A stretch of DNA of 41,747 nt from a virus. Below, in pieces: positions 8,146 through 41,653 of this stretch (its first letter is position 1; the number at the start of each line of letters is the position of its first letter). The DNA is taken from the IMG/VR virus record IMGVR_UViG_3300022696_000071, positions 1 through 41,747 of that record; one strand, written 5' to 3'. Made by a program: the position numbers and the translations under genes. The notes below the pieces were generated by a model. It made no database searches. It saw nothing but the letters and a program-made list of their open reading frames with translations, and had not been told where the DNA came from.

Positions 8146-8176
8146 TATATCTACCCTTTTTTATAATAGCTTAATA

Positions 8177-11632: not shown

Positions 11633-11780
11633 CAACTGTCCTCCTATTGGCTGATATCTCAATTTCTTTATATAATTTTTTAACTTGATCATTTATTTTT
11701 AACAATTCTTCATGTATTTCCCTTATATCTTTTATCAATTTTTGCAACGTAACATGACTATCAAATTGTTCATTACCCAT
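11622..11780 (-). CDS. Possible small protein (52 aa) upstream of and overlapping the ThyA-family start
   Basis: Hand translation gives MGNEQFDSHVTLQKLIKDIREIHEELLKINDQVKKLYKEIEISANRRTVDEI. GAAGGA lies 8 nt upstream. It is below the ORF-track size cutoff and its stop overlaps the ThyA ATG. Confidence 0.3.
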   Translation of the reverse strand: MGNEQFDSHVTLQKLIKDIREIHEELLKINDQVKKLYKEIEISANRRTVDEI

Positions 11781-12223: not shown

Positions 12224-13254
12224 GCAACATTATTCTTAAATGGATTATCTATAACAGTTTTAACAGGAAAAATTGGTTTTTCACCAAAATCTTTTCTATT
12301 CTTATTCCAATAGACTTCTAAACTATTAACTGATACATTATTTCTAAACCATTTGTAATTTTTATTAGTTTTTGTTTTATCGGATAATATTATAAAGTTA
12401 GCAACCGAAAGTTTTGTATATGATAGTATAGATGGAATAACACTTTCAAAATGTTTACCAAGTATAGATGCCCATATACAAGATTTATCTAAAACTTCTT
12501 TCATGCCATAATCCTTTATAGATACCAATAAATCAAATATTCCTTCACATAAAACAATCGTATTTACATTCTTTTTTAGATTATTTGTTTTTATAGCATA
12601 AAAATCTCTGAAATAATCAGATGGATTAAGATCAAATTTAAAATATCTAAACTTGGACGTAGCATCTATATTTCTTAATAGTAATGTACTGCCCCTCGTT
12701 GATATAAATCCAATAAATGAATCTTCAAACCAATCAAGAAATCTATATTTATCTCCTAAATCAATTTTGTTACTTGTAACAAAATCTCTTATATCAAATA
12801 TAAGACCAGGTATATTTTCTATAATATAATCAAACCCCAATCTATATTTTAAGTAACTTTTCTTTAAAATATATCGATCACTATTATCTATTTTTTTAAC
12901 ATTATAATTATGTATTTTAAAAGATTTGGTGTGATAATCATATCTAAGTAATCTGCATTTAAATCTGTCTAATATATCTTTAGATACATATTGTCGTACA
13001 TCTTCACCAATAAATCTCAATAATTTCAATAATGTACCCCTACCATATCGAGAATCATCACCGCATTTAAAACATATAAACATCGGCAATTGATCTTTAT
13101 TCATTGGAACTTGTATATATAGATGTCCATGGTTTTTAATTGATTGAAGTTCGCACCAAGGACATCTACATATTAATTCTGTTCTGTTACTGTTATAATA
13201 AGATAATCCCGTTTTTGTTTTTAATGTATTCTCCAATCTTTGAAAATCAATCAT
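12208..13254 (-). CDS. DNA primase (T4 gp61-like; zinc-ribbon plus TOPRIM)
   Basis: N-terminal zinc ribbon CRCPWCE...HGHLYIQ...FICFKCGD matches the phage primase pattern (CPFC..ARGHIY..CFNCG). TOPRIM-like IVLCEGIFDLLVS with a conserved Glu. Confidence 0.72.
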   Translation of the reverse strand: MIDFQRLENTLKTKTGLSYYNSNRTELICRCPWCELQSIKNHGHLYIQVPMNKDQLPMFICFKCGDDSRYGRGTLLKLLRFIGEDVRQYVSKDILDRFKCRLLRYDYHTKSFKIHNYNVKKIDNSDRYILKKSYLKYRLGFDYIIENIPGLIFDIRDFVTSNKIDLGDKYRFLDWFEDSFIGFISTRGSTLLLRNIDATSKFRYFKFDLNPSDYFRDFYAIKTNNLKKNVNTIVLCEGIFDLLVSIKDYGMKEVLDKSCIWASILGKHFESVIPSILSYTKLSVANFIILSDKTKTNKNYKWFRNNVSVNSLEVYWNKNRKDFGEKPIFPVKTVIDNPFKNNVAWNRR

Positions 13255-13263
13255 AATAATAAA

Positions 13264-13440
13264 TTAACTCGCTTTCCTATTATGTTCTTCTTGCATTTCA
13301 TCCCAATCACATTTCAACATAATTTCATAAAAATTATTTTGATTTATTACATGCTTTTCTATAAGTACATATTTATCCAAATCTAAATTTTCATATTCAT
13401 CATCTCTTATATAAATAGATGTCACTATTTTAATATCCAT
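13264..13440 (-). CDS. Possible small protein (58 aa) filling the gap between primase and the next gene
   Basis: Hand translation gives MDIKIVTSIYIRDDEYENLDLDKYVLIEKHVINQNNFYEIMLKCDWDEMQEEHNRKAS in the operon orientation. It is below the ORF-track cutoff. Confidence 0.3.
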   Translation of the reverse strand: MDIKIVTSIYIRDDEYENLDLDKYVLIEKHVINQNNFYEIMLKCDWDEMQEEHNRKAS

Positions 13441-13451
13441 GACGATTAATC

Positions 13452-13700
13452 CTATTTAATTTTTTTAAATGGTTTTTCCTGTTCTGATTCTGCCATAAGA
13501 TCATCGAGATACATTTCACTAAATTTACTTAATACACATATAAAATTATTCATACATACTACTTTCCAACCATCTTCCCCAAGTATAGATAAAGTATTTT
13601 CAAAATTATCATCTGTTCTTACAACTTTATACTTTCGTTTATGATTAACGGGTATCGACATTTTAATCTCCCAATTAGATTCTAAAATTAAGCTTATCAA
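13452..13700 (-). CDS. Hypothetical protein (82 aa)
   Basis: Listed ORF overlapping the clamp-loader gene end (translational coupling). Confidence 0.4.
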   Translation of the reverse strand: MISLILESNWEIKMSIPVNHKRKYKVVRTDDNFENTLSILGEDGWKVVCMNNFICVLSKFSEMYLDDLMAESEQEKPFKKIK

Positions 13701-14664
13701 ATTCAGATTTTACTTTAACAATTTCATATACCATAGCCATAAAATGCATAGGTGGAATCATAGCTTGATTATGATCATTTGCATATTTATTAATAATTAT
13801 CTTCGCCCATACTGGTATATTTTCAGAATCATCTTCAAATAATTCTTCGTACAACATATTATAATCAAGTTCTTGCTCACTAACCAATTTTCTCATTTTT
13901 GTTATAGAATTACCAATTATTTGTCCATTCTTAGATTCAAGACCAGTAAATAATTCACTTATAAAAGATCTAAATTTTTTCTCATTTGATGCTATTGCAT
14001 TTATATTTGAATTTAAAACATTATTTTCATCGACAAGATTTTGAATGCTGTATATTATCTTTCTTATATCTGGATAATTTATTGATATAATTCGTTTAAT
14101 CGTATTATCATTATATGTAACATTTTCAGATTTTAATATATTAACGCAATTTTCAAATATATATTCTTTCGACATTCGAGAAAAAACATAAGATGTTCCA
14201 AAACGAGATTGTAATGGATCGATTAATTTATATTTATAATTACAAGTAAATAAAAATCTCCCATGACTTTGATATTTTTCAAATATTCCTCTTAATGCCG
14301 CCTGTGCATTTAATGATAAATAATCTGCCTCATCTATAAAAACAACTTTAACTTTCGAACCACCCAATGTAGGAGTTCTAAAAAATTCATCAACAGTTGT
14401 TCTCATGATATCTACACCAGTTGACGAACTACCATTTAATTTTAATACATCTGCTCTATCTTTTATTACTTTTGATAATAAGATAAGAGCAAGTGTTGTT
14501 TTTCCAGATCCTGGTGGCCCATAAAATAAAAGATGTGGTATTTGCTCTTCTTCTATATATCTATTAAAAGTTTTAACATAATCATCCGGTAATACCATAT
14601 CTTCTATTTCTCTTGGTCTATATTTCTCTACCCATAAATAAGTACGCTCTAATTCTCCCGCCAT
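13675..14664 (-). CDS. Clamp loader large subunit (T4 gp44 / RFC-like AAA+ ATPase)
   Basis: WVEKYRP box, Walker A GPPGSGKTT, Walker B/DEAD-like VFIDEADYL and SRF/SRC motif (LQSRFG), arranged as in T4 gp44. Confidence 0.85.
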   Translation of the reverse strand: MAGELERTYLWVEKYRPREIEDMVLPDDYVKTFNRYIEEEQIPHLLFYGPPGSGKTTLALILLSKVIKDRADVLKLNGSSSTGVDIMRTTVDEFFRTPTLGGSKVKVVFIDEADYLSLNAQAALRGIFEKYQSHGRFLFTCNYKYKLIDPLQSRFGTSYVFSRMSKEYIFENCVNILKSENVTYNDNTIKRIISINYPDIRKIIYSIQNLVDENNVLNSNINAIASNEKKFRSFISELFTGLESKNGQIIGNSITKMRKLVSEQELDYNMLYEELFEDDSENIPVWAKIIINKYANDHNQAMIPPMHFMAMVYEIVKVKSEFDKLNFRI

Positions 14665-14721: not shown

Positions 14722-15927
14722 TTAAGTTCCATCTTCTTTATAATGAACTATTGATAATGTATCTCCTTCAACAAATGCATCATCTCCAATATTTATAGAA
14801 TGAATAATAAGATCTGTATTTGCACCCGTTTTAGAAACAGTCCAATAATAATCCATTACTAAAATACCATGCCTACCATATACTTTAAAATATACTGGAT
14901 CATCACCAAGATCTTCGCCCAAGTCGATAGTTAATTGAGTATCGGATTGAATATCAGTTATATCTTGAGCAGTTATACTATATGTAAGTGTTTTATTTAA
15001 AACCATATCCACATTCTGAACTGTTTCTGTCAAATTATCCCCAATAGTAGCCATAATGTTTTTTGGAACAGTTGTTACTTCGTCTATATCTCTTCTCAAG
15101 TATATTTGATCTACTTCAATTGAAAATACAATTCTATCAATTTCTGGCAAAGCTTCTGAATAAAAAATTAAATGGGTTGGTAGATTACATTCAAATGTCA
15201 TTTCTATATTTAATCTCCATTCTGCCAACCCATCACTACCTTCATACCGCTCACTACCATCATTAACATCTTCAAGTATAATTCTTGGTCGCAATACATA
15301 TGGAAAAACATTTTTATTCTTGTTTATATTTCTTATTAATAAATCTTGCTGAACATTCGTTCCTGTCCAGCTTAAATCATATGATTCCGATGTATATGGG
15401 TTTTCATAAGTATAATAATCAAAACTATCTGGAAGAATTAATTGACCATTTATATTTTTTGGCTCAATTGGTCTTCCAGTACCACCAAAGAATTGATATG
15501 CCAATATTCTATAATCAAACATTTCATATATAGAGCTACACCAAACAATCATAGATAATGATCCAACATATCTATTCAAAGCAGGTGCTATAATAATATT
15601 ACCATCATCATATATTCGTGGTTTATACTCATTTAATGCTTGTTTATGTCTAAATTGTGGATATTGATAAAAGAATCTTCCAGCTTGATCATCCGGTTTG
15701 AAATCATATCCAGGTTCAAGTGTAATAAATGGATACGATATTCTATGTTTTTCATCTGGATCTTGTAATAACTGAGTATATCGTTCTACTGATTTCTCAT
15801 AAGAAGATATGATTAATTTACTTGATCTTGGAAATAATTCTGTTTTAAAAAAATCACCAATTCCTTGTAATAAAGCTGATATGCTATTATTAATATATTG
15901 ATGATGATAAGCAGTCATGGATTTCAT
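14722..15927 (-). CDS. Hypothetical protein (401 aa)
   Basis: Listed ORF with AGGAG-like SD upstream. No motif recognised. Confidence 0.5.
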   Translation of the reverse strand: MKSMTAYHHQYINNSISALLQGIGDFFKTELFPRSSKLIISSYEKSVERYTQLLQDPDEKHRISYPFITLEPGYDFKPDDQAGRFFYQYPQFRHKQALNEYKPRIYDDGNIIIAPALNRYVGSLSMIVWCSSIYEMFDYRILAYQFFGGTGRPIEPKNINGQLILPDSFDYYTYENPYTSESYDLSWTGTNVQQDLLIRNINKNKNVFPYVLRPRIILEDVNDGSERYEGSDGLAEWRLNIEMTFECNLPTHLIFYSEALPEIDRIVFSIEVDQIYLRRDIDEVTTVPKNIMATIGDNLTETVQNVDMVLNKTLTYSITAQDITDIQSDTQLTIDLGEDLGDDPVYFKVYGRHGILVMDYYWTVSKTGANTDLIIHSINIGDDAFVEGDTLSIVHYKEDGT

Positions 15928-15953: not shown

Positions 15954-16580
15954 TTAGAATTCTACATGTTCTTTTACTTTAGCAATTATATTATTTTTCA
16001 AAAAAGTTATATTTGATAATTCTTCATATTCTTCAGTATAATTGTTATAAAGTTTATCTAATATATTATCACCAACAGAATTACTTATTTGAATACCTGA
16101 AGTACGTATAATATTGGTTTTTGTAACAGAATTATAACACTTTCTTTGAACAAAAAAGAAATTAAAATCACATTCATATCCAATGAGTTTAAATCCAATA
16201 ACAAGCAAATAATTGGAAGATTTCATTTTACAGTTCTCAATATATGTTCTTTCAACTAAAAACTTATTTAATTTGCGTTCATATGATCTATTAATACCTA
16301 AAAACTTATTAATATAGTCCACTTTTTCTTCTTTTATTGTATTCAATGTTAAGAACATTTTACAGAATTTAGATAATTCTAAATTTCTAAATAACGTTAT
16401 CGATATGTCATTTGGTTCTTTATACGTCTTAAATTGTAAAGATGTTTTTTTATTATTAAATAATATATTAAATAATATTTTTTTATTACTAACATACGTC
16501 ATATATGTATTACATCTATTAAACTTCTTTGGAAAAGATAAACTTATTTTAGTATTGTTGTTCATAATTTTATTCTCCAT
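15954..16580 (-). CDS. Hypothetical protein (208 aa)
   Basis: Listed ORF. Its start overlaps the stop of the upstream 699-aa ORF (coupled). Confidence 0.5.
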   Translation of the reverse strand: MENKIMNNNTKISLSFPKKFNRCNTYMTYVSNKKILFNILFNNKKTSLQFKTYKEPNDISITLFRNLELSKFCKMFLTLNTIKEEKVDYINKFLGINRSYERKLNKFLVERTYIENCKMKSSNYLLVIGFKLIGYECDFNFFFVQRKCYNSVTKTNIIRTSGIQISNSVGDNILDKLYNNYTEEYEELSNITFLKNNIIAKVKEHVEF

Positions 16581-18802: not shown

Positions 18803-19968
18803 TTAAAAAATTTAATAAATTATTAAACTTTTTAGATTTTATTTCTAAACCAGTTAACATGTTTAAATTTTGTCCTCCTCCAACCCATAAACAATACATA
18901 GGTCATTATGACTACCGTTTGTCCACATAGCAGCAGCTATTCCAATTTTCAAAATATCTTCTTAAAAGTACCGACTTGACCCAAAAATTGCTCGGACATA
19001 TTCTTAGAATATGATTATGTCACATGTACAATCTACTAATTCCATGTTAACAACATATACAGTTCATTATTAATCTACTTAGATTATAGAATGAATCTAT
19101 ATAGATTAATTTAAAACATTTTAGAATCTTTCATATTAGATTTTAAAAATCTAATATTAATTCTTTCTTAGATACTAAGAAAAAAGAATCTATATTTATC
19201 TAATTAGATTCTTTTAAGATTCAAATGGAAAAACTATTTGAGGTCAAATATTATTACTCGTTTCATGAAGCCCAGGCGTAATGAAACGGACATATATTGA
19301 TATATTCATGAATTATATATGAATGATTCAAAATTCCAAAAAATAATTGATAAATGAAAAATAAATAAAGATAAAGAAATCTAAATTAATTAATTTATAT
19401 CTTATTAATAAAAGAAATTTAAATGATTAATAAAATATGAATAATTAAATTTAAAGTTGAATAAATGATTTATCAATAGATATATATTAAATTTATATAT
19501 TTGATATATTAAACATTTGAATTGATAAATAAATTAGTCAAATTAGGGTAAGTAGAGGTTAACTGCAAAGTTAAAAACCTACCAAAAAACAGAAATAATG
19601 AATCATTGTGTTTCGGATTTTTATAAATAGAGAAGTGGTAGGGAGAAATGATTAGAATCTTAAAGAACTATAAAATTTGTTATTTAACCTTATTTAAGAG
19701 ATAAATTGATCTTAATAGAAAGTTATTAAGAAATTAAGAGTTGGATGTAGATGTTGTATCAATTCACTATCAATATGAATCAACTTGATTTTATTTTAAT
19801 AATTAATCTAATAAGTTAATGTTGCATCAATGTGTATCAATTTAGATAATCATAAATAAATAATCACCAGTTTTAATCATTCATGGCTCAATTTATAGAA
19901 CATATAATCTTCTTAGATCAATTTGATTATTGATGACTCCCTATCGGTCGAGAACCGGCCCTCGAACG

Positions 19969-20006
19969 GTTTTAGAAACTGCAAAACAGACCGCAGTTTC
20001 TAAAAC
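19969..20006. other. Perfect 14-bp stem / 10-nt loop hairpin (GTTTTAGAAACTGC-AAAACAGACC-GCAGTTTCTAAAAC), no flanking U-tract
   Basis: Exact inverted repeat read directly from the sequence. Confidence 0.6.
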
Positions 20007-20146
20007 GCTTCAAGACCTATTATATGTTATAATAATTATATAGAATATACTTCGTATATTAATATGTAAAATAATAACTTAACATATGGAATCAGTACCG
20101 GTCGTGTGAATCTTCTACGGCTTAATCAAGAATCTTTTTATATAGT

Positions 20147-20194
20147 GTTTACTAAGTGATCTTAGTCCGTTCCGTCCTTGATCACTTAGTAAAC
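20147..20194. other. Perfect 15-bp stem / 18-nt loop hairpin (GTTTACTAAGTGATC...GATCACTTAGTAAAC), no U-tract on either strand
   Basis: Exact inverted repeat read directly from the sequence. It lies ~140 nt past the stop of the kinase gene on the minus strand. Confidence 0.6.
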
Positions 20195-20333
20195 AAATCC
20201 GCTCTCTCCATATATTCATAATTTTTTCTTATTAGAATCTTCTGTTAAGCGGAATAGCCCCGACGATTAAGATTCTGATGTGATTCTATTTAGATATGAT
20301 CGCTAGTGGCTAGATTAAAAGTAGATAATCTAT

Positions 20334-29818: not shown

Positions 29819-30595
29819 ATGGAAAAAGAAACAGTTATTCAGTTATTTACTCCGGGATTAGATAGTTATCTTGGTTATCACTATTTATCAAAAAAATACA
29901 ATGTTAAAAGAATATATTTTAAATTGAAATCAAGATATACTGATAATGAGATAAAAATACTCAATAATTTTTATAATGATATTTATATATATGAAAATTT
30001 AAATTTATCTGATATAGAACATGACGATGCATATATACCAAATAGAAATTTATTAATGGCAACATTAGCATCATCATTGTATCCAAATATATCTAAAATA
30101 TTTATAAATGGTATGAAAGATGATAGAGTTAATGATAATAGAGAAGATGTATTTAATAGATTATCTATAGTAGTATCTATGAGTATGGATAAACCGATAA
30201 TGATAACTAGTGAATTCTGGAATAAAGAAAAATCTGAAATGGTATCAACATTTGTAATAAAAAATGAGCCAATAATAGAACATTTAGCAACCAGAACATA
30301 TAGTTGTTTTAGTAAGTTTTTTATATACAATAAAACAAGAATATATAATGGTAATCCAATAGATGGTAAATTTAATAAAAATGGAAGATTAAAAATTTAT
30401 GGATGTTGTTCATGTCCAGCTTGTTTTCGTAGATTTGCGGCATTATCGAATGCAAATATATTTATACCATTTAGAAATGATAATATAGTAGATGGTTATA
30501 GAGGAGATGCTATAAATAAAAATATTCATCCATTCAGATATTTTTCAACACTTGAATATATTAGATTTTTAGATTTTATGAAAGGAGTGAGATAA
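29819..30595 (+). CDS. queC: QueC-like 7-cyano-7-deazaguanine synthase homologue (PP-loop ATPase fold with a degenerate PP-loop)
   Basis: IPNRNLLMATLAS ~ QueC VPGRNLLFMSIAA. C-terminal zinc motif CCSCPACFRR ~ CGECPACQLR. The N-terminal TPGLDS replaces the canonical SGGxDS. Confidence 0.65.
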   Translation: MEKETVIQLFTPGLDSYLGYHYLSKKYNVKRIYFKLKSRYTDNEIKILNNFYNDIYIYENLNLSDIEHDDAYIPNRNLLMATLASSLYPNISKIFINGMKDDRVNDNREDVFNRLSIVVSMSMDKPIMITSEFWNKEKSEMVSTFVIKNEPIIEHLATRTYSCFSKFFIYNKTRIYNGNPIDGKFNKNGRLKIYGCCSCPACFRRFAALSNANIFIPFRNDNIVDGYRGDAINKNIHPFRYFSTLEYIRFLDFMKGVR

Positions 30596-32734: not shown

Positions 32735-33367
32735 ATGAAAACAATTGTATATGATGTAGAAATTATAAATGTTCCAGATGAAACGGAAAAGGGTTGGGAT
32801 GATCCATTTGGTCTTGGCTTTGCATCAGCAGTAATTTACTATGTAGAAGATGATCGATATGATTTTTTTCTACATGAAGAAAGTAAATCAAGATTGATAG
32901 AAACATTAAATGGAAATAGAACAATATCATTTAATGGTATTGGTTTTGATACCATGAATATTCTTGGTAATGATAGAGTTATAAAACCAACTGAATCTCC
33001 ATTATCATTTCATGTTGAAAAGGAAATAGATGATAAAATAGTATCATGGAGAGAATTTGATATATTCATGCTTGCCAAACGATCTGAATTTGGAAAAGAT
33101 GATGTGATGTCTGCATTTTTAAGTAATGAGAGAACCGAACCAGGCGTTCTAAAATTAATGACTATATCGAAGATGACACTTGGTGGTAATTATTTTAAAA
33201 CTGGAGAAAGTGCGCTGGCACCAAAGTTATATCAGAATAAAGATTATGCTAATCTGCTTCAATATAATCTTCAAGATGTAAGATTAACATATAAATTATA
33301 TGATTTTATTATGAAAAATGGATATATTATGAATGGTAGGGATGAGCAGCTATGGATTAAAAAATAA
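32735..33367 (+). CDS. DEDD-family 3'-5' exonuclease
   Basis: Exo I VYDVEI (D-x-E), Exo II FNGIGFDTMNIL, Exo III YNLQDVRLTYKLY (Y-x3-D). Confidence 0.55.
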   Translation: MKTIVYDVEIINVPDETEKGWDDPFGLGFASAVIYYVEDDRYDFFLHEESKSRLIETLNGNRTISFNGIGFDTMNILGNDRVIKPTESPLSFHVEKEIDDKIVSWREFDIFMLAKRSEFGKDDVMSAFLSNERTEPGVLKLMTISKMTLGGNYFKTGESALAPKLYQNKDYANLLQYNLQDVRLTYKLYDFIMKNGYIMNGRDEQLWIKK

Positions 33368-33379
33368 AAGGAGAAAGAT

Positions 33380-33991
33380 ATGTCTGTCATTGGGATACGA
33401 GAAGTCATAAAGATGATAAAAGATGGAGTAGATTTATCTTTAGGTACATTTAAATCAAAATCAGTTAAGAATGTTAAACCATTAATTGAAAATTTTGATA
33501 AAGACGCGATAGTTAAACCAGAAGGAACAACATTCGATGTACGATTAGATAAATTGTTTGAATTAAAAAATGTTGATAATCTCGGAAATACATATACTCC
33601 TGAATTATTAGTTTCTGGTAGAATTACAGCAAATTCTACAGAAATTAGCCCTGATGGAAAACAAATATACTCTATATATCCAAATAAACCATATCTTGTA
33701 ACAACATTAGAAAGATTAAATACTCCAAATAATATCTTTCCAATGTGTAATAGAAGAACTACTATGTTCAGAAGTGGCCTGATTATGCAAATGACAAATG
33801 TATCTCCGGGGTATAGGGGTTATCTGTCATTTATGATATATAATGTACTTAATCACATAGTTCGAATTCAACGTGGTTTTGGAATTGCTTCTATTGCATT
33901 TTTTACAATAGATGGTCGCGCTGTTCCATACGATGGTGTTTGGCAAGAAAATAAACGAATCACAACAACTGAAGAAATAAGACCAAAATGA
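33380..33991 (+). CDS. dCTP deaminase / dUTPase superfamily protein (Dcd-like)
   Basis: FDVRLD ~ Dcd [38 protein letters not shown] ~ [43 protein letters not shown] ~ GMLIGALSF. Confidence 0.65.
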   Translation: [203 protein letters not shown]

Positions 33992-34547: not shown

Positions 34548-34561
34548 CCAATTTCAATGAA

Positions 34562-34601
34562 AAATGGGAAACTGGACTCTATTCCAATTTCCCATTTTTT
34601 G
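34562..34601 (+). terminator. Rho-independent terminator (AAATGGGAAA...TTTCCCATTT stem followed by TTTT)
   Basis: 10-bp perfect stem with an internally paired 16-nt loop, then TTTTTTGTTG. Confidence 0.55.
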
Positions 34602-34643
34602 TTGTCAGAGAGTGTGGTCTTTTTTTCTTATTCACCGGACATA
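34601..34643 (+). promoter_or_regulatory. TTGTCAGAGAGTGTGG...CGGACATA composite upstream of the polymerase-thumb gene
   Basis: Shares the CAGAG(A)GTGTGG and (C/G)GGACA(A/T)A elements with the 28250 region. Confidence 0.3.
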
Positions 34644-34668: not shown

Positions 34669-35496
34669 TTGGAGGTATTAGTGGATAAAAATAAGAAAGA
34701 AGTCATCATAAAAAAGATATTGGAACATTGTTCTATATTGGAAGAAGTATTAAATAACGAATTATTAATTGAATTTGGTAAATTAAGAAATATAAAAACA
34801 AAATATAATAGATTTAGTGCAAAACAAGAAGTTATAGCACAGAGAGGATTCTTTTTAGATGTAAAAAAGAAATATGCATTATGGATTATAAATAATGAAG
34901 GAGTGGATACGGAAGAGTTTGATATAAAAGGGCTAATAACAAAAAGATCTGACTATCCAACATTAACTAAAGAAAAAATAATGGATATCATAAGTTTTCT
35001 TGTAAAAGATGATGTAGTATCTTTTAAGAAAATAAAAAAACATATAGATGAACAAGATAATAATATACGATCATTATGTATAAAAGGTGATAAATCTATA
35101 GCAAGACCTGTATCATTCTCTAAACCACTCAAAGAATATAAAAGAGTACCATCTCATGTGGAGGGTATGTTACTGTGGAATAAATTAGAATATGATTATT
35201 TTGTTCCAGGTACAAAGGGATATCAATTTAAGATAATTGGAATAGATCCAGTAATATCTACTGGAAGAGTACAATCATCATTACCATATATAAATTTTAA
35301 AAAGAATAATAATGTGGTTTTACCATACGAAGCAGATCGTCTTCCTAAATATTATAATATCGATGTTGAATCAATGATTCAATTTGCATGGGTTAATAGA
35401 TATAAAGAATTATTACATCCAATATGGGATAGATTACAATCATCTGGAAAAAACAAAAGTGGTAGATCTATGGCACAATTTGCATTTCAATTTTAA
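34669..35496 (+). CDS. Family-B DNA polymerase C-terminal fragment (thumb domain with KKRY motif and C-terminal clamp-binding tail), encoded as a separate gene
   Basis: GFFLDVKKKYALWIINNEG ~ T4/RB69 gp43 GGFWTGKKRYALNVWDMEG. The terminal ...MAQFAFQF ~ RB69 ...SLFDMFDF clamp-interaction motif. The likely true start is GTG at 34681 after GGAGG; the listed TTG is at 34669. Confidence 0.68.
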   Translation: MEVLVDKNKKEVIIKKILEHCSILEEVLNNELLIEFGKLRNIKTKYNRFSAKQEVIAQRGFFLDVKKKYALWIINNEGVDTEEFDIKGLITKRSDYPTLTKEKIMDIISFLVKDDVVSFKKIKKHIDEQDNNIRSLCIKGDKSIARPVSFSKPLKEYKRVPSHVEGMLLWNKLEYDYFVPGTKGYQFKIIGIDPVISTGRVQSSLPYINFKKNNNVVLPYEADRLPKYYNIDVESMIQFAWVNRYKELLHPIWDRLQSSGKNKSGRSMAQFAFQF

Positions 35497-36173
35497 ATCT
35501 TTCTTGCTAATTTTTTCATATCATCTGATGTTAATAAGTTATCTTTTTTATATTCATATTTTGAAATCGCTTCTGAAATGTTTGATTTACATTTATCAGG
35601 ATTACTTGTTTTATCACATAATTCTTTTTGTTTCTCCAATTGAGTAATAGTATCGTGCATTACTTTTATTTTACATGTTGTTAATCTATCACCTCTTAAT
35701 TGCCAGCATTCGCCATGTAGTCGCTTTCTATAATAAGTTACAATCATTGAACCGATTGCTAAACCAAGAGCAATGCTTGCCAAAACAGATAATATTCGAG
35801 TAGCTTTCATTGATTTATTTGCATTTTTTGAAGCTTTTTCTGCCATATCTGCAACATCATTCAATCTTTTTTTAGTATCTTTATAATCTCTTTTTAATTT
35901 TCCAATTATACTTCTTGGTCTTCTTTCTGTTGATGAGCTACTACGTTCACTTCTATTTGACGAAGATCTAGAAGAAAAAGATGCTATATAACTTTTTAGT
36001 TTACTCAAACCAGACGATTCAGACGATTCAGATAATTCAATCATATTATCTATATTATTTATCATTTCTTGTCTAATATTATTATTTATATCCAAATCTT
36101 CAATAGCTAATATCATTGATTCAATGCAATTAAAACTTAATTCCTCACCAATATATTTTTCAGATATATACAT
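35493..36173 (-). CDS. Membrane protein (226 aa): N-terminal coiled/Ser-rich region, one TM helix, Cys-containing C-terminal domain
   Basis: Hydrophobic segment ILSVLASIALGLAIGSMIVTYY. AAGAGG SD. TATAAATA lies 16 nt upstream of the ATG on the minus strand. Confidence 0.55.
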   Translation of the reverse strand: MYISEKYIGEELSFNCIESMILAIEDLDINNNIRQEMINNIDNMIELSESSESSGLSKLKSYIASFSSRSSSNRSERSSSSTERRPRSIIGKLKRDYKDTKKRLNDVADMAEKASKNANKSMKATRILSVLASIALGLAIGSMIVTYYRKRLHGECWQLRGDRLTTCKIKVMHDTITQLEKQKELCDKTSNPDKCKSNISEAISKYEYKKDNLLTSDDMKKLARKI

Positions 36174-36188
36174 TATTAAATCCTCTTT

Positions 36189-36196
36189 TATTTATA
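36189..36196 (-). promoter_or_regulatory. T4-type late-promoter-like TATAAATA box for the minus-strand membrane-protein gene
   Basis: Minus strand reads TATAAATAAAAAGAGGATTTAATAATG. Confidence 0.35.
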
Positions 36197-36254
36197 CAAT
36201 TAAACATTTAGAATTTGTCCTTCTATTACATTAAAAAAAGGAGAAAGTTTATTT

Positions 36255-38840
36255 ATGAATAAGAAATTAAAAACTAAATTTGGAGATTGTCTCAAATGTG
36301 ATTTAAACACAAAAGATAATAAGACAATGACAAAACTGGTATTTGGTGAGACAAATTGTCAAAACGACTTAGATTCTATTAAATTGTTAATATTAGGAGA
36401 AGCACCAGCTTATCAAGAAACTCTTGATAATAGACCATTCGTTGGAAAAGCAGGAAGAGTATTTAGAGCAGAATTTGCAAATTCTGGACTTATTAATATT
36501 CCACATTATATAACGAATATAGTAATGTGTTCAAATCTAAGTTATAATCCTATAACAAAAAATATAAAAACAAATAATCCGTCGCAACTTGCTATAGATT
36601 GTTGTAGTAGAAATTGGAAAGAATTAATAAATATATTATGTCCAGAATATATTCTTGCACTCGGATCATCTGTTCAAAAAGCACTTGATATAAAAGGAAG
36701 TGCAAGTCAATGTAGGGGAAAATTCTATTATTATGATGATCCAACATTTACTGGCTTTGTTCCACCACAAATATTTGCAACATATCATCCATCATATATT
36801 GCACGGGGAACAACACCAAAACATGTACGTAAACAATTTATATCTGATTTTTCAACTTTAAATAAAGAAATAACTAAAGAACCAAGTTTTATGACAGGAG
36901 AAATAGAAGAAGAGAAAAAGAATGATAAAGTTCAAAAATTTGATTTAAAGCTTAATAGTCCATATTCATTTGATATTCCAGATAAATTTAAAACTCAAAA
37001 TATTGTATTAATAGATATTCAAAAAGACAATTTCAATTCACAAATAATATATGTTTTTAGAGATGCAAATAGAAATAAATTTTATCATTATGCATCTGCA
37101 AGAGATAATTATTATTATGAATCAACTAAACTTAGTGATAATTGTGATATTCTTGAAAATGTAGAAAACGTGCATATTAAATTCGGACATCCCCCGAGGT
37201 ATGGATCACGTAGGGGATTATATGAAAGTGATTTATCAATAGAATACAAACACTCTATTGATTATTATCTACATAGAAAAAAAGATGAACTTCATTATGA
37301 TTTACAAATATTCTATTATGATATCGAAGTATATAATTATGGATCAAGAGAATTTCCAGATCCAAAAATTGCAGCAAGTCCGATAAATGCTATATCATTT
37401 AAAAATCATAATGATGAAATAAATTGTTATGTAGTCAATCCAAAATTTTTCAATTTAAATACTAATATAGATATCAATATAGAAAGTAAATCAAAATTTG
37501 ATTTTAAGCTCACTATATTTGAGAGTGAAAAAGAATTATTAGAAACTTTTATGAAAAAATTAAGAGAAGACAGTCCAGATATAATGATAGGATGGGCTAA
37601 TCATAATTTTGATATAATATATATATTTAACAGAATAAGAAAAAATAATTTAAAAGCAAGTGATTTATCTCCGATAGGAAGATGTAATATAAATCCAAAA
37701 AAATACGGAGATATATTTATAGGCGGCATATCATCTGTAGATATGCTTGAATTATATAAGAAATTTACATTTTCAGTAGAAGAATCTTATAAACTCGAAG
37801 CAGTTGCTCAAAAACAACTTGGTGAAGGAAAAATTAATTATTCTGGACCACTCGATGAAGTATACCAAAATGATTTTATAACTTTTGTTAATTATAGTGT
37901 TCAAGATTCAAGATTATTATATGAATTAAATGATAAACTTGGACATATAAAACTTGCTAATGAACTACGCAAGATTTGTAGTAGTACATGGAAAGGAGTA
38001 GAATCTACAATTGGCCTTATAGATCCATTATGTATATCATACGCAAAAAAGATGAATATTGTATGTAAAGATTCAGATATGGGTATAAATGAAAAATTTA
38101 AAGGAGCATATGTAAGAGATCCAGTACCAGGTCTTCATAGTTGGGTAGTTGATATGGATTTTGCATCAATGTATCCAAATATAATTATATCATGCAATAT
38201 TGGTCCAGACACATACATTGCAAAAATAGATGAGCAAATTGCTTATGATTATGTCTATAAAAAAGATAATGTTCCAAAATCATTTACAATAACATATAAC
38301 CCAATAACTAATTTCGACTCTACAACAATATCTTTAAATGATTTTGATAAATTTATGAGTAAAAATGAAGCGATTATTACAAGTGCTGGAACTATATTTA
38401 TTGGTCATGATAAAAAGCTATCATTTTTCAATAAGTTACTTACAATGCTTCTTGATTCACGAGTTAATTATAAAAACTTAATGAAAGATGCTAAACGAGA
38501 AGATAGAGAAGAAGACAGAGCAAGATTCTTTAATATTCAGATGGCGTATAAAATTCTTGCTAATTCAATTTATGGCGCTCTTGGCGCGTCTGTATTTAGA
38601 TTATATCGATTAGATCTTGCTAAATCGGTAACTTTAACGGGAAGAGAACTTACTCAATTTGCTGGTTATCATATGTCAAAATTTATGACTACTGATAATA
38701 AAGAAATAGATCCAGATTTTAAAGTTAAATCAAAAGAACATCAAAAGTATTGGATATATGCTGATACAGATAGCATATTTTTAGAAATTGGAGATTATAT
38801 GATAGATAAAGGTATTGCTGTAAGAGAGGAATTATCATGA
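36255..38840 (+). CDS. Family-B DNA polymerase N-terminal fragment: family-4 UDG-like domain + 3'-5' exonuclease + palm (motifs A, B, C), ending 25 aa after motif C. The thumb is absent
   Basis: UDG4-like GEAPAYQETLDNRPFVGKAGRVF and HPSYIARG, with CxxC (FGDCLKCD). Exo I YYDIEVY, Exo II WANHNFDIIYIFNR, Exo III YSVQDSRLLYEL. Pol motif A DMDFASMYPNII, motif B KILANSIYGALG, motif C YADTDSIF. The stop overlaps the queE start (ATGA). Confidence 0.85.
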   Translation: MNKKLKTKFGDCLKCDLNTKDNKTMTKLVFGETNCQNDLDSIKLLILGEAPAYQETLDNRPFVGKAGRVFRAEFANSGLINIPHYITNIVMCSNLSYNPITKNIKTNNPSQLAIDCCSRNWKELINILCPEYILALGSSVQKALDIKGSASQCRGKFYYYDDPTFTGFVPPQIFATYHPSYIARGTTPKHVRKQFISDFSTLNKEITKEPSFMTGEIEEEKKNDKVQKFDLKLNSPYSFDIPDKFKTQNIVLIDIQKDNFNSQIIYVFRDANRNKFYHYASARDNYYYESTKLSDNCDILENVENVHIKFGHPPRYGSRRGLYESDLSIEYKHSIDYYLHRKKDELHYDLQIFYYDIEVYNYGSREFPDPKIAASPINAISFKNHNDEINCYVVNPKFFNLNTNIDINIESKSKFDFKLTIFESEKELLETFMKKLREDSPDIMIGWANHNFDIIYIFNRIRKNNLKASDLSPIGRCNINPKKYGDIFIGGISSVDMLELYKKFTFSVEESYKLEAVAQKQLGEGKINYSGPLDEVYQNDFITFVNYSVQDSRLLYELNDKLGHIKLANELRKICSSTWKGVESTIGLIDPLCISYAKKMNIVCKDSDMGINEKFKGAYVRDPVPGLHSWVVDMDFASMYPNIIISCNIGPDTYIAKIDEQIAYDYVYKKDNVPKSFTITYNPITNFDSTTISLNDFDKFMSKNEAIITSAGTIFIGHDKKLSFFNKLLTMLLDSRVNYKNLMKDAKREDREEDRARFFNIQMAYKILANSIYGALGASVFRLYRLDLAKSVTLTGRELTQFAGYHMSKFMTTDNKEIDPDFKVKSKEHQKYWIYADTDSIFLEIGDYMIDKGIAVREELS

Positions 38841-39610
38841 CAATTTATTTAGCAGAAGAACCATTTTATAGTATACAGGGTGAAGGTCCAATTGTAGGAA
38901 AACCATGTATATTTTTTAGATTCACTGGATGCGTATTATCTTGTGATTTTTGTGATACAAAATATGCATGGTGGAATAAACATAAATATAAACTTGAAGA
39001 TTATAGTAGAGATAATCATAAAATACATAGATTATCTGATAGATATATAATAACTGGTGGTGAACCATTAATGCATGTTCATACAATAGAATTTAAAGAG
39101 TTTATAAAATCATTATTATCCATTGGAAGAGTATCTTTTGAAACAGTAATGCTGCCATCTACAGGAGATATAAAATCTCAATTATCTATGGGAGTAATTC
39201 ATTATATGAATAAAGTAGATGAAATATTTGATACTCATCCAGAAGATAGAAGATATATCATATCTCCAAAATTAGATTTATCATGCTATGATCGAAGTTA
39301 TCAATATTTCAATAATATAGATGAAGTAATAAACTATTACTCATTTGAAGAACATCAAACATGGTATAATACAATGTTCTTTTATAAATTAGTGTACAAA
39401 AAAGAATACGAAGAAAACATTCTTAAATTATTTAGAAGTACGAATATGGATTTTGACAGATTTTATATTATGCCATTCACACAATTACCATTTGATAGAA
39501 AAGAGTATATAAAATCTTGCAAAGAAACAATTGAATTTTGTAAAAAGCATGGGTTTATTTATTCACCACGATTACAATTTGATGTTTATGGAGATAAGAA
39601 AGGAGTATAA
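38837..39610 (+). CDS. queE: 7-carboxy-7-deazaguanine synthase (QueE, radical SAM)
   Basis: EPFYSIQGEGPIVGKPCIFFRFTGCVLSCDFCDTKYAW matches the QueE N-terminal signature including the CxxxCxxC cluster. ITGGEPLMH follows. Confidence 0.85.
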   Translation: MTIYLAEEPFYSIQGEGPIVGKPCIFFRFTGCVLSCDFCDTKYAWWNKHKYKLEDYSRDNHKIHRLSDRYIITGGEPLMHVHTIEFKEFIKSLLSIGRVSFETVMLPSTGDIKSQLSMGVIHYMNKVDEIFDTHPEDRRYIISPKLDLSCYDRSYQYFNNIDEVINYYSFEEHQTWYNTMFFYKLVYKKEYEENILKLFRSTNMDFDRFYIMPFTQLPFDRKEYIKSCKETIEFCKKHGFIYSPRLQFDVYGDKKGV

Positions 39611-40279: not shown

Positions 40280-41653
40280 ATGAATAAATTTATATGTGCG
40301 GCTATACCTTCTATTAGAAGACACTGTAATGTTGTATTTAAACATTATGATGAATATGCAGATAGAGAGGGATTAAATAAATTTTTATTGGATAATTGTA
40401 ATAAATTTTTATCTTCTGTGGGAATATCTTTAGATATTAAAAGATATGGTGGTGTAGATAATAATCTATTCAAACGATATAATACTATATTCAGAAATAT
40501 AAAAAATGAAGAATATATGAAAAATATAGAATTGGTATTAGATAGTGCTGGATACCAATTCCAATGTGGTTTATTTTCTAAATCACAAATACCAAAATTC
40601 ATTAAAATGTACCATAACTTTTTAATAAAAAATTATACTGAATATAATAATGCTTTCTTATTTGATCCTCTTCTTGGTGATATAGATGGTTATGATGAAA
40701 TGAAAAAATATAATATATACTCGTATGCAAAAGCTTCACAACTTCCAGTATATGTAAGAGATAAATTAATGTTTATATATCACTTTAGAACTCCACTTAT
40801 CAATAGATTATATAAGGAATTATTATTTGATTATAAACTTGGTGATCATTTTAATAATTTTGCAACTGGTGGATTGGTAGCATTTAATAGAACATCACGA
40901 AAAGGAATACCATGTATACTTTATACAATACCATTAATTTATATATTGAATCATGCAAAGCGTGTTGGATTAAGAAAATTTAGATTCCATATATTAGGAA
41001 ATGCAGAGTTTAAAGATATAATATTCCATAGATTAATCGAAAAACACGTAAAAGAAATTCATAATATTGATTTAGATATAACTTATGATAGTTCAACTAT
41101 ATTTAAATCATTTATGATGGGTAGATATTTCATATATAGTGATGACTCTGATCAATCATTATATAAATTATTTATTCGATCAGATACACTACATAAGAGA
41201 TTTAAAAATCACGGAACAAATGAAGATTGTTTCTATAAACTAATAAATGAAATTTCGAATACATACGGCTTCAAAGCAATAACAAAATCAGACGTTCCAG
41301 TGTACAATGAGCATAATCGAATCTCTCCACTATTGGCGTTTTATGGAATTCTTTTAATTTTGAGATTGTATGAAATATGTGACAAGTGGGCTATGGGTTC
41401 CATAGATCATCTGTACAGGCTTTACACACGCGGACATAATATTGAATTTAATAATAAACTAATAAATACTTTAACGAATTTAAATAATGGGGTTTTGTCA
41501 CGAACTATAAGATATAGATCAAATGCATTTATAAATAGTATGAATGCAATTGAAGAATTAGATATAGAATATAGTGATTATATTATAAAAACTTATTTAT
41601 CATTCGATGAAGATAAAAATCTGGCAAGAAATAGAGAATATATAATGAGGTAA
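40280..41653 (+). CDS. dpdA: DpdA-like tRNA-guanine transglycosylase family protein (candidate DNA 7-deazaguanine transglycosylase)
   Basis: LDSAGYQFQ ~ Tgt LTDSGGFQV. AFLFDPLLGD ~ VMAFDECTPY (catalytic Asp). FATGGLVAFN ~ YAVGGLAVGE. FHILGNAEFKDI ~ HYLMGVGKPDDI. DITYDSS ~ DMFDCVL (second catalytic Asp). Confidence 0.68.
   Translation: MNKFICAAIPSIRRHCNVVFKHYDEYADREGLNKFLLDNCNKFLSSVGISLDIKRYGGVDNNLFKRYNTIFRNIKNEEYMKNIELVLDSAGYQFQCGLFSKSQIPKFIKMYHNFLIKNYTEYNNAFLFDPLLGDIDGYDEMKKYNIYSYAKASQLPVYVRDKLMFIYHFRTPLINRLYKELLFDYKLGDHFNNFATGGLVAFNRTSRKGIPCILYTIPLIYILNHAKRVGLRKFRFHILGNAEFKDIIFHRLIEKHVKEIHNIDLDITYDSSTIFKSFMMGRYFIYSDDSDQSLYKLFIRSDTLHKRFKNHGTNEDCFYKLINEISNTYGFKAITKSDVPVYNEHNRISPLLAFYGILLILRLYEICDKWAMGSIDHLYRLYTRGHNIEFNNKLINTLTNLNNGVLSRTIRYRSNAFINSMNAIEELDIEYSDYIIKTYLSFDEDKNLARNREYIMR

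Follow-up and report, generated by a model that had tools for sequence, protein, structure and literature searches.

The stretch of viral DNA analyzed here (the window, 41.7 kb of IMGVR_UViG_3300022696_000071, lying within a 201-kb contig) contains two open reading frames (ORFs) that resemble different parts of a family B DNA polymerase (PolB) and lie in inverted order, which raises the questions of (i) whether their products make up a single replicative enzyme; (ii) how the gene order came to be reversed; and (iii) what a uracil-DNA-glycosylase (UDG)-like domain does at the N-terminus of the larger product. At a GC content of 27%, the lengths of the two ORFs and the E-values of their matches are far beyond chance, and the source is an uncultivated, low-GC, large T4-like phage. 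Taken as a whole, the locus very probably encodes a two-polypeptide, non-covalent replicative PolB of the T4/RB69 type that is fused to a UDG-like module and whose genes were, on the simplest reading, reordered after the split. The preliminary description, made from the sequence alone, had proposed that the PolB is in two halves, that these lie in inverted order and that the N-terminal fragment bears a UDG-like domain of family 4 with cysteines for a possible Fe-S cluster, and this core holds.

The large subunit is laid out as follows:

36255..38840, plus strand: large polymerase subunit gene, 861 aa, with AAGGAG upstream of the ATG
36276..36875, plus strand: family-4-like UDG domain, residues 8-207 (PF03167, E 1e-19)
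36882..36944, plus strand: disordered linker from the UDG module to the polymerase, residues 210-230 (pLDDT 27-33)
36945..38042, plus strand: PolB N-terminal and 3'-5' exonuclease domains, residues 231-596 (PF03104, RB69 alignment)
38043..38774, plus strand: palm and fingers, residues 597-840 (PF00136; invariant columns)
38775..38840, plus strand: last 21 residues (IFLEIGDYMIDKGIAVREELS) and stop codon, the family-wide break site, after ...GDY(L/M)xDK

Pfam assigns to this product a UDG domain (PF03167, residues 41-192, E 1e-19), a PolB exonuclease domain (PF03104, residues 331-517) and a PolB polymerase domain (PF00136, residues 597-859), the last covering only profile positions 23-250 of 453. 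Similarly, positions 18-589 of PHROG 262, a full-length T4-type polymerase of 856 positions, are covered. The protein was aligned to RB69 over 338-669, and RB69/T4 gp43 are the best fold matches of its structural model (pLDDT 83.9, E 3e-27). The catalytic motifs are invariant in the family alignments of both subunits (20 large and 25 small members); in the large one these comprise Exo I (D356/E358), Exo II (F452/D453), Exo III (Y547/D551), motif A (D633/D635...Y640-P641), motif B (K766...N770-S771...G774) and motif C (D837-T838-D839-S840, nucleotides 38763-38774). The product ends 21 residues after DTDS, rather than the 25 past YADTDS counted previously. When the large subunit was modeled alone, the strands of motifs A (627-639) and C (836-839) had low confidence and were among the few disordered internal segments, as might be expected of a palm sheet that needs a partner.

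This partner would be the product of the upstream gene:

34681..35496, plus strand: gene for the small polymerase subunit (271 aa; start codon GTG 34681, with GGAGG at 34671-34675)
34681..34935, plus strand: C-terminal part of the palm, residues 1-85 (long helix and three-stranded sheet)
34936..35448, plus strand: thumb domain, residues 86-256 (model and Foldseek)
35449..35493, plus strand: disordered C-terminal tail, residues 257-271 (ending in SGRSMAQFAFQF; pLDDT below 50)
13675..14664, minus strand, elsewhere in the window: gp44-type clamp-loader subunit (PHROG 168, E 7.5e-68)

The ORF had been placed at 34669..35496, and its strand and upstream position stand; however, while TTG 34669 would give 275 aa, translation probably starts at GTG 34681, since this codon sits 5 nt past GGAGG and yields a product equal in length to the database copy P0001 (271 aa). 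As had been predicted, the product aligns to the PolB C-terminus: it matches PHROG 262 positions 597-766 (E 2e-16) and, below cut-off, Pfam PolB positions 276-353 (E 0.002), and RB69 gp43 is the best Foldseek match of its AlphaFold model (pLDDT 85.6, E 2e-7). The thumb is modeled with a pLDDT of 89-98 over residues 90-250, and the Foldseek alignment extends to RB69/T4 gp43 and archaeal PolBs over ~195-290 columns. Although a thumb is present, the protein is more than the thumb it was taken for, as its first ~85 residues finish the palm (H3-36, E52-58, E65-70 and E76-83 in the model) and, given their alignment to unsplit homologs and the domain limits of RB69, appear to correspond to the end of the RB69 palm. 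They include the KKRY-type motif recognized earlier, as KKKY (residues 62-65, nucleotides 34864-34875); K48, Q49, E50, K62, K63 and Y65 are invariant among 25 family members.

The C-terminal peptide of T4/RB69 gp43 binds the sliding clamp. By analogy, the tail of the small subunit is a plausible candidate for a clamp-binding peptide, 20 of 25 aligned family members ending in [L/I/M]-x-x-(x)-[F/W]. No sliding-clamp gene was recognized within the 41.7-kb window, but the clamp-loader gene implies that there is a clamp for such a tail to bind.

In the enzyme that we propose, the two polypeptides would assemble non-covalently into an active replicative polymerase, the 861-aa subunit supplying the family-4-like UDG module on its flexible linker, the N-terminal domain, the proofreading exonuclease, the fingers and that portion of the palm which bears the catalytic aspartates (motifs A and C), and the 271-aa subunit the remaining palm strands, with the primer-contacting KKKY motif, and the thumb that would grip the duplex, while its disordered tail probably docks on the clamp. 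Split PolBs do work: 43A and 43B of T4-like phages co-purify and are active (PMC2988022), and split Pfu and Methanothermobacter PolBs provide further precedent (PMC3061061).

Joined, the large and small products give a single colinear HSP to each of seven unsplit homologs of ~1,100 aa (for example, query 6-1117 against P0076 13-1116). Their coverage of PHROG 262 is complementary and non-overlapping, and the RB69 sequence alignments and the fold matches of both models point the same way. The break lies in a surface segment ~15 residues past motif C, in line with a residue-by-residue alignment of the junction to unsplit and canonical-split relatives, and ~40 diverged homologous bodies stop 12-27 residues past DTDS. 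In all, the family comprises 45 stand-alone thumbs and ~40 truncated bodies (38-57% identity), and an exhaustive search returned 21 stand-alone thumb representatives among the best 150 clusters. The earlier statement that the residues on either side of the junction sum to a normal spacing fits, although the distance from DTDS to KKKY (21 + 61 = 82) exceeds the 70-78 of unsplit relatives, the excess being short non-homologous ends.

Two further features concern gene order and transcription:

34555..34604, plus strand: terminator-like hairpin with A-run/T-run flanks, between an upstream 69-aa ORF and the thumb gene
35493..36173, minus strand: antisense ORF of 226 aa that separates the polymerase genes and encodes a single hydrophobic helix

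The thumb gene lies upstream of the body gene, on the same strand, in 10 lineages (the window, L001/2, L003, L004/5, L008/9, L011, L093, the P0080 contig, L095 and L096). The permuted split, described as unusual compared with T4-like phages, is conserved, and it has relatives, L091 and L092, that break at the same residue in normal N-to-C order. Other relatives (P0076, P0078 and L012) are unsplit, P0076 occupying the same genomic neighborhood. Between thumb and body genes, relatives have 0, 1, 5 or 7 other genes. The window's antisense ORF, without Pfam or PHROG match and with itself as its sole database match, is lineage-specific and no part of the polymerase. It had been described as a membrane-protein gene with its own late-type promoter: the ORF and its hydrophobic helix are present, but the octamer TATAAATA upstream of it (36189-36196, minus strand) has 27 copies in the window, where 20.4 +/- 4.8 would be expected; its frequency is not above chance, and the promoter lacks statistical support. 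The hairpin before the thumb gene (-24.3 kcal/mol, z = -5.35, a stability reached by 0 of 200 shuffled sequences) suggests that the small-subunit gene begins its own transcription unit.

Could the two ORFs be independent, with the 861-aa protein working in repair or editing without a thumb, the 271-aa protein serving as a DNA- or clamp-binding factor, and another polymerase, encoded elsewhere, replicating the genome? The window is only one fifth of the contig and, with an antisense gene between the two and a terminator-like hairpin before the small one, co-transcription is not needed. Nevertheless, we consider this improbable: the small protein contributes to the palm, with the invariant KKxY motif among its palm residues, and has no fold apart from PolB by Foldseek; in the fetched loci, the body gene is always accompanied by a thumb gene on the same contig and strand, and none of these loci gave a second PolB match; in close relatives the two genes are often 8-13 nt apart, with Shine-Dalgarno sequences (L001, L008, L011), that is, with signals for coupled translation; and in unsplit relatives the gene takes up the same genomic position, next to DnaB, QueE and further genes of the replication module. 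Even less credible is covalent joining of the halves by split-intein trans-splicing, as in 'fractured' polymerase genes. Inteins do occur nearby: relatives L016 and L032 have split inteins in PolB (N-intein ...TEDHS..., C-intein ...VHN/TDS), others have inteins in the family's exonuclease domain (P0060, P0067, P0074, P0075), and another gene of the window contains one. Here, however, the large product ends 21 residues past DTDS and the small one resumes where unsplit homologs continue, leaving no room for ~100 + 35 residues, and both ORFs lack an intein Pfam match and a Cys/Ser/Thr +1 nucleophile context. A pseudogene, or an assembly or frameshift artifact of what is a single metagenomic contig, is barely conceivable, as the stop site is the same in ~40 non-identical homologs from JGI, ENA, NCBI and Logan assemblies, a frameshift cannot yield a reversed order, both genes have ribosome-binding sites and all catalytic residues are intact. 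The original reading of a functional split is strengthened by its conservation in ~40 divergent relatives and by the gene order in 10 lineages.

The UDG-like domain contains all of the motifs first reported, with motif A as GEAPA (48-52), Asn88, His178-Pro-Ser and candidate 4Fe-4S cysteines C12, C15, C92 and C117; in the alignment to the Thermus family-4 UDG (1UI0, E 1.4e-13), GEAPA, HPS, CxxC and the two later cysteines are in register. Beside the polymerase genes lies a possible source of its substrate:

33380..33991, plus strand: dCTP deaminase-like gene (Pfam DCD, E 5e-16)

This gene also matches NCBIfam dCTP_deam (E 7.5e-19) and, more weakly, dUTPase (E 6.5e-8), and as a source of dU nucleotides it could make a replicase-linked UDG useful. 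The uracil or modified-base sensing suggested at first parallels a proposal made for UDG-PolA fusions (PMC10201439). In this view, the module most likely acts at the fork by binding or excising uracil (or a related pyrimidine), which would link replication to the surveillance of bases in a phage that would make dU nucleotides via dCTP deaminase. That it is instead catalytically inert, a DNA-binding, processivity or structural part of the replicase, is a real if less probable possibility, and one that concerns the UDG part only. Motif A is (A/G)EAPA in the family, against GE(A/G)PG in family 4; the stacking Phe of PFVG is replaced by Leu in 35 of 43 relatives; and the match to NCBIfam UDG_fam4 (profile positions 1-169 of 173) scores 81 bits, below the curated cut-off of 125. 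Moreover, the domain has degenerated, with loss of the catalytic motifs, in P0068, P0080-85, P0088 and P0090, which indicates that it is dispensable for polymerization. An inert domain has also been considered for N4-like UDG-PolA enzymes (PMC10201439), and poxvirus D4 serves as a processivity factor (PMC3946371). Conversely, Glu49, Asn88, His178-Pro-Ser and the four cysteines are kept in ~80-90% of members over ~60% divergence (of 43, the cysteines in 38, Glu in 35, Asn in 34 and His-Pro-Ser in 34), residues that a pure scaffold would be unlikely to keep, and the dCTP deaminase gene adjoins.

Among deposited phage genomes there is no UDG-PolB fusion, while UDG-PolA fusions and a PolB split just past motif C (Methanothermobacter) have been described. 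In UDG-PolA enzymes (N4-like cluster, SPO1, SP-10, SP-15; PDB 9QHS), an N-terminal family-4 UDG-like domain is likewise attached to a phage polymerase, with uracil/5hmU discrimination, a second editing mode or processivity as proposed roles (PMC10201439); that polymerase, however, is of family A, whereas here a disordered linker connects the UDG to a PolB. The closer match of our domain to the free-standing Thermus UDG than to the PolA-fused 9QHS (E 5.5e-6) indicates an independent fusion. Poxvirus E9-A20-D4 also ties a family B replicase physically to a UDG (PMC3946371, PMC11142717). D4, however, belongs to UDG family 1, is a polypeptide of its own that A20 bridges to the polymerase, and takes the place of a clamp as processivity factor; the phage enzyme has its family-4-like Fe-S UDG in the polymerase chain itself, and the phage encodes a clamp loader.

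With respect to the split, gp43 of the T4-like phages 44RR, 25, 31, 65 and 133 is also a T4-type PolB made from two cistrons (43A/43B), 2 bp to 3 kb apart and sometimes with inserted ORFs (Petrov et al. 2006, 2010; PMC2988022, PMC3061061), but these are split at the fingertip and in N-to-C order; the corresponding PHROGs, 2062 and 1918, meet at ~749/750 of our large subunit, whereas the gene described here is broken past motif C, with its C-terminal part encoded first. A break just past motif C is not unprecedented: Methanothermobacter thermautotrophicus PolB1/PolB2 is split in the palm shortly past motif C, and its large exonuclease/palm/fingers subunit and small C-terminal subunit are jointly active (Kelman et al. 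1999, cited through PMC3061061). We liken the two in general position rather than residue by residue, and the splits are evolutionarily independent; the archaeal enzyme is cellular, has its genes ~85 kb apart and lacks a UDG, while the phage genes are tightly linked and inverted. The metagenomic 'fractured genes' (Dassa et al. 2009, PMC2677866), to which relatives L016, L032 and L029 belong in kind, also place phage-type polymerases in two ORFs, but these are broken no further along than motif C, contain either intein halves or a GIY-YIG gene, and keep the N-to-C order, none of which is seen here.

Given that L091 and L092 break at this very residue in normal order, and that other relatives are unsplit, the simplest reading of the reversed order is that the thumb gene was relocated after it had become separate, the order having become free after splitting. 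The gene would first have split in place, as it still is in L091 and L092, and its thumb portion would afterwards have shifted to a site immediately before the body gene; the reversed order is precisely what would result if the two-gene unit were duplicated in tandem and the outer copies then lost. The junction may then have become a slot for insertions such as the window's antisense ORFan. No remnant of a duplication was found in the fetched loci, each having one match. In a neighbor-joining tree, the split clade includes unsplit P0076 and P0078, which nest with canonical-split forms, whereas a permuted clade without UDG branches outside the split clade. This calls for re-fusions, for splits or relocations that happened more than once, or for an error in the tree, rather than a simple single origin; the thumb tree did not resolve the branching. 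As unsplit and in-order-split relatives survive, the steps of the rearrangement are visible.

The three ORFs of the polymerase locus named in the preliminary description were recovered by ORF calling where it had placed them:

34681..35496 (likely start; 34669 in the preliminary description), plus strand: small-subunit (thumb) gene, 271 aa; end of the palm with KKKY, thumb and tail
35493..36173, minus strand: antisense ORF, 226 aa, between the two polymerase genes
36255..38840, plus strand: large-subunit (body) gene, 861 aa; uracil-DNA glycosylase (UDG)-like domain, exonuclease, and palm and fingers through motif C

The two plus-strand genes encode a two-subunit T4-type family B (PolB) replicase with a cis-fused family-4-like UDG, an arrangement that is real and conserved. 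Within the 861-aa product, Pfam places the UDG domain at residues 41–192, the PolB exonuclease at 331–517 (PF03104, E 6e-21) and the PolB polymerase domain at 597–859, the last of these covering only positions 23–250 of the 453 in its profile. RB69 gp43 is alignable to the large subunit over residues 338–669 and 757–852, and positions 18–589 of PHROG 262, a full-length polymerase profile of 856 positions, are covered with E 3e-110; the stop codon follows 21 residues past DTDS. The Exo I (DxE; D356/E358), Exo II (NxxxFD; F452/D453) and Exo III (YxxxD; Y547/D551) residues are invariant among 20 body homologues, as are D633, D635, Y640, P641, K766, N770, S771, G774 and D837–S840, and the polymerase motifs A (DMDFASMYP; consensus DxxSLYPS), B (KILANSIYG; KxxxNSxYG) and C (YADTDS; YxDTDS) all lie within this ORF. 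The structure model of the large subunit has RB69/T4 gp43 among its fold neighbours. Modeled alone, the chain is mostly confident, with low confidence at the termini, in the linker (210–230), in one loop and in two strands, 627–639 and 836–839, which hold the aspartates of motifs A and C, respectively; these weakly modeled strands fit, suggestively, a palm sheet that would need a partner.

The small gene likely starts at GTG 34681, which lies 5 nt past a GGAGG and yields 271 aa, the same as the database copy (P0001). Its product matches positions 597–766 of PHROG 262, and its AlphaFold model (pLDDT 85.6) finds RB69 gp43 as the best structural neighbor; a PDB sequence search with the small ORF as query gave no match, and its identity was settled via PHROGs, unsplit homologues and the fold search. 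This ORF had been described as a separate thumb gene, and it does encode the thumb, though not the thumb alone, since its first approximately 85 residues, a long helix and a three-stranded sheet with KKKY, belong to the palm. In the model, the thumb spans residues approximately 86–256 and a predicted disordered tail residues 257–271. KKKY and the thumb are found on a separate 271-aa ORF, and not, as in gp43-type PolB, on the polypeptide with the catalytic part of the palm; KQE...KKxY and further positions are invariant among 25 small-subunit homologues. In 20 of the 25 family members the tail ends in [L/I/M]-x-x-(x)-[F/W], and given the disordered end, the shared ending and the presence of a clamp loader, clamp binding by this tail is plausible. 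No clamp gene was recognized within the window, and a search for a sliding clamp beside the clamp loader (ORFs 15954..16580 and 14722..15927) returned no PHROG, Pfam, NCBIfam or PDB match.

When the large and small products were joined in silico, a single colinear HSP crossed the junction with each of seven unsplit homologues (1,053–1,126 aa). Residue-level alignment of the junction determined that the body ends in ...GDY(L/M)xDK plus a few non-homologous residues, and that the small protein begins exactly where the unsplit proteins continue. The two products thus make up the enzyme without overlap or gap, complete only as the sum of both, in agreement with their complementary coverage of the RB69/gp43-type profile (PHROG 262, 18–589 and 597–766). 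A split-intein 'fractured' gene would have an N-intein closing its first fragment and a C-intein (...HN + Cys/Ser/Thr) opening the second, and such genes do occur among distant UDG-PolB relatives: in two IMG/VR loci (L016 and L032) a split intein breaks the polymerase within motif C (...VHN|TDS...), the two parts of the polymerase are separated by unrelated ORFs, and this 'fractured gene' arrangement keeps the canonical order. Unlike in those loci, neither ORF of the window has a Pfam intein match or extra residues at its termini, and the colinearity of the junction with unsplit homologues leaves no room for intein halves. The colinear junction, the invariant motifs and a break shared by relatives, the separate-gene state being kept in at least 12 examined lineages, bear out the claim of a clean functional split as opposed to a pseudogene. 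That the subunits associate and reconstitute activity we infer from precedent (PMC2988022, PMC3061061).

The protein database contains 45 stand-alone small subunits (217–291 aa, 41–57% identical) and approximately 40 bodies, every one of which ends 12–27 residues past DTDS. An exhaustive profile search over 1.84 billion cluster representatives gave 1,913 matches, 103 of them at E ≤ 1e-30; the best 150 include 53 unsplit proteins (at least 1,000 aa), 21 stand-alone small subunits without motif C, and 25 short C-terminal fragments that include motif C and must therefore stem from splits further upstream. The inverted gene order, noted in the preliminary description as unusual, holds throughout the clade of the window: in all 10 lineages examined, the thumb gene precedes the body gene and shares its strand; the interval between the two varies as follows, with Shine-Dalgarno sequences within the short gaps.

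Content of the interval between the thumb and body genes in the window and in related loci (L-numbers) or contigs
Window: antisense 226-aa ORF
L001/L002: 13-nt gap
L008/L009: 11-nt gap
L011: 8-nt gap
L003, L095, L096: one small ORF
L093: one ORF
P0080 contig: five ORFs
L004/L005: seven ORFs, DNA ligase among them

The ligase of L004/L005 is NAD-dependent and accompanied by six small ORFs. The body at the same locus (13177.., P0067, 1,419 aa) bears an extra YAcAr/SLOG-like domain (PF10686) N-terminal of the UDG module, and an intein in its exonuclease domain.

The antisense ORF of the window, which reaches 4 nt into the small-subunit gene at its stop, encodes one hydrophobic helix and a low-complexity stretch rich in Ser. 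Its only match among 5.8 billion protein clusters is itself, which argues for a lineage-specific insertion in a slot that has repeatedly accepted insertions. The late-type promoter (TATAAATA) that had been proposed upstream of this ORF did not hold up: the sequence occurs 27 times against 20.4 ± 4.8 expected, not above chance, and a sigma-70 scan likewise found no excess (40 matches vs 40.2 in shuffles).

Three states coexist in this polymerase family: (i) unsplit, (ii) split in place and (iii) split and permuted, the last being that of the window's clade. Unsplit UDG-PolB proteins in canonical order include P0076 (L010), P0078 and L012, as well as the more distant P0086–P0094; P0076 has the same neighborhood, with a glycosyltransferase-9 gene upstream and DnaB downstream. 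In L006, a relative with an unsplit UDG-PolB, genes for ribosomal protein S21 and for a homologue of Cpn10 (GroES) lie a few genes downstream of the polymerase (13168..13687). In P0077 (L091) and P0072 (L092), which keep the canonical order, the break falls at the very residue seen in the permuted forms; the thumb gene comes second, either 21 nt on and behind a strong Shine-Dalgarno sequence or overlapping the body gene by 17 nt. As relatives preserve these intermediate states, the swapped gene order can be explained. In the simplest path, the PolB gene would first have been split in place in canonical order, and the independent thumb gene would then have been relocated to directly upstream of the body. 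Relocation could have proceeded by tandem duplication of the pair and loss of the outer copies, which would leave the tight thumb-then-body order exactly as observed. When the loci were searched for duplication remnants, body and thumb each matched once only, and the duplication-deletion model thus has no direct trace. An ORF at 32735..33367 (plus strand, 210 aa) was considered as a leftover of a duplicated polymerase and rejected, as its weak ExoIII-region similarity (E 6e-4) does not mark a recent duplicate. It encodes a stand-alone DEDD-type exonuclease-like protein (YDVE..., NGIGFD, YNLQD), whose L001 counterpart has a weak PF10108 match.

A neighbor-joining body tree unites all split forms with P0076 and P0078 in one clade (195 of 200 bootstraps), within which the main permuted clade is recovered in 189 and the group of P0076, P0072, P0078 and P0077 in 153 of 200; a divergent permuted clade lacking the UDG (P0080–85) falls outside the others (176 of 200), possibly a long-branch effect. 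At face value, this interleaved tree would call for re-fusions of adjacent genes, or for repeated splitting and relocation; bootstraps of the thumb tree are low (6–35%). More distant relatives show canonical-order splits at other sites with mobile elements involved, as in L029, where a GIY-YIG gene has been inserted ahead of motif C; in L013, the break is located between motifs B and C.

Profile matches and cysteines aligned with those of the Thermus enzyme 1UI0 uphold the proposed fusion of a family-4 UDG-like domain to the N-terminal fragment. Residues 8–207 align end to end with family-4 UDGs; PF03167 scores 71.5 bits (cut-off 24.3 bits) and 1UI0 matches over residues 12–186 (E 1.4e-13). 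The NCBIfam family-4 profile (UDG_fam4, TIGR00758) is covered over positions 1–169 of 173 with 81.2 bits, below its curated cut-off of 125.3 bits, and we therefore refer to the domain as family-4-like. C12, C15, C92 and C117 line up with the cysteines of 1UI0, the family-4 4Fe-4S ligands, and are candidate ligands here; 38 of 43 family members have all four. The motif-A Glu is kept in 35, Asn88 in 34 and His-Pro-Ser in 34 of the 43. UDG motif A reads GEAPA in the window and AEAPA in the family consensus as opposed to the canonical GE(A/G)PG, both glycines usually being Ala; motif B reads HPS in the window, where family 4 has HP(S/A); and the Phe of PFVG, Leu in most relatives, is Phe in the window. 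The motifs have decayed in P0068, P0080–85, P0088 and P0090, which, together with their retention elsewhere, indicates that the module is selectively maintained in most lineages and is not required for polymerization. In the model it is tethered by a predicted disordered linker of approximately 20 residues (210–230).

Our preferred reading of these motifs is that the UDG module binds or excises uracil, or a related pyrimidine, at the fork, a reading based on the dCTP deaminase-like gene nearby and on the AT richness of the genome. A competing reading to be taken seriously, with a substantial minority chance of being correct, is a non-catalytic module that binds DNA or adds processivity. As the domain is closer to free-standing UDGs than to the UDG-PolA structure 9QHS (E 5.5e-6), its fusion appears to have been independent. 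We consider it unlikely, if worth stating, that the following hold jointly: that the fused Fe-S UDG serves a family B replicase as a third, functional active site, excising or sensing uracil or a modified pyrimidine in template or nascent DNA at the fork, and arose independently of UDG-PolA fusions; and that the thumb-first order was selected, possibly more than once, as setting the order of subunit assembly, and is not neutral. Were this true, the UDG module would parallel, as a fusion in cis, both poxvirus D4 and the uracil read-ahead of archaeal PolB.

Nature is known to divide PolB at three places (PMC3061061, PMC2988022): (i) at the fingertip in the T4-like phages 44RR, 25, 31, 65 and 133; (ii) between the N-terminal and palm domains in RM378; and (iii) in the palm of the Methanothermobacter enzyme, approximately 83 residues past Pfu 467/468 and just after motif C, its genes lying 85 kb apart. 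The fingertip split differs from that of the window, as the corresponding PHROGs (2062/1918) meet at approximately residue 749/750 of the large subunit. In position, the break in the window resembles that of Methanothermobacter; however, it affects a T4-type phage enzyme whose genes are tightly linked and in reversed order, and we conclude that it arose independently. Family A phage polymerases with a family-4 UDG fused at the N-terminus are well documented (N4-like, SPO1; PMC10201439), and in poxviruses a family-1 UDG is coupled to PolB through A20 (PMC3946371). Since split PolB and UDG-polymerase fusions are both known kinds, the replicase of the window is a variation on these and not a new kind of system. 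It extends replicase-UDG coupling, as in UDG-PolA fusions and poxvirus E9-A20-D4, to T4-type family B enzymes, and, in a genome with dCTP deaminase-like and putative 7-deazaguanine genes, offers a second, independently arisen fusion in which the role of a polymerase-borne UDG can be tested. In the searchable literature, which covers few subscription journals, we found no account of a UDG-PolB fusion or of a family B polymerase with a UDG domain.

The family also provides, for one essential enzyme of one phage family, a natural series of unsplit, split in place and split with swapped order: once the polymerase was divided at a tolerant site past motif C, gene order was free to change and the junction became an insertion slot. 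A two-piece Pfu polymerase has been made by accident (PMC3061061), and the division that nature has validated here, with the catalytic palm on one side and the KKRY/thumb module on the other, could aid the engineering of two-piece family B polymerases.

The architecture is abundant in metagenomes, but a search of 50,697 deposited phage genomes did not find it: no record carries the UDG part and the polymerase together at coverage of at least 80%, and every top match listed begins at approximately residue 300 of the large ORF. Megablast of the locus against deposited phages gave no match, and a genome-collection scan yielded one distant locus only. The best deposited thumb match, the 484-kb uncultured phage LR756508, was rejected as a counterpart, its polymerase being different, intein-interrupted and in canonical order.

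The window, part of a 201-kb JGI metagenome contig, is low in GC (about 22–36%) and carries a T4-like replication and nucleotide metabolism module with gp44-type clamp loader, primase, dCTP deaminase-like, QueC-like and QueE-like genes; T4-type portal and prohead protease are present in relatives. A single ORF of more than 2,720 codons (1..8160, minus strand) encodes a giant protein and runs off the left end. In the 1,034-aa ORF at 8588..11692 (minus strand), an intein that includes a LAGLIDADG domain (PF14890, PF14528) interrupts thymidylate-synthase-like pieces (PHROG 85/160), whereas L006 and L092 encode an uninterrupted ThyX of approximately 444 aa. A region of approximately 1.2 kb with 22% GC (~18930..20115) contains no ORF of at least 40 aa and no tRNA, and could be an origin or regulatory region; ATCTA...TAGAT palindromes recur in it (e.g., 19069–19110 and 19130–19160), and a perfect 16-nt inverted repeat lies at 20146–20195. 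The QueC-like and QueE-like genes (29819..30595 and 38837..39610) flank the polymerase locus, and QueE is followed by a conserved 457-aa ORF without family match (40280..41653; 468 aa in L001 and L091). Together, the Que set and this ORF, a candidate DpdA-type transglycosylase, suggest 7-deazaguanine DNA modification.
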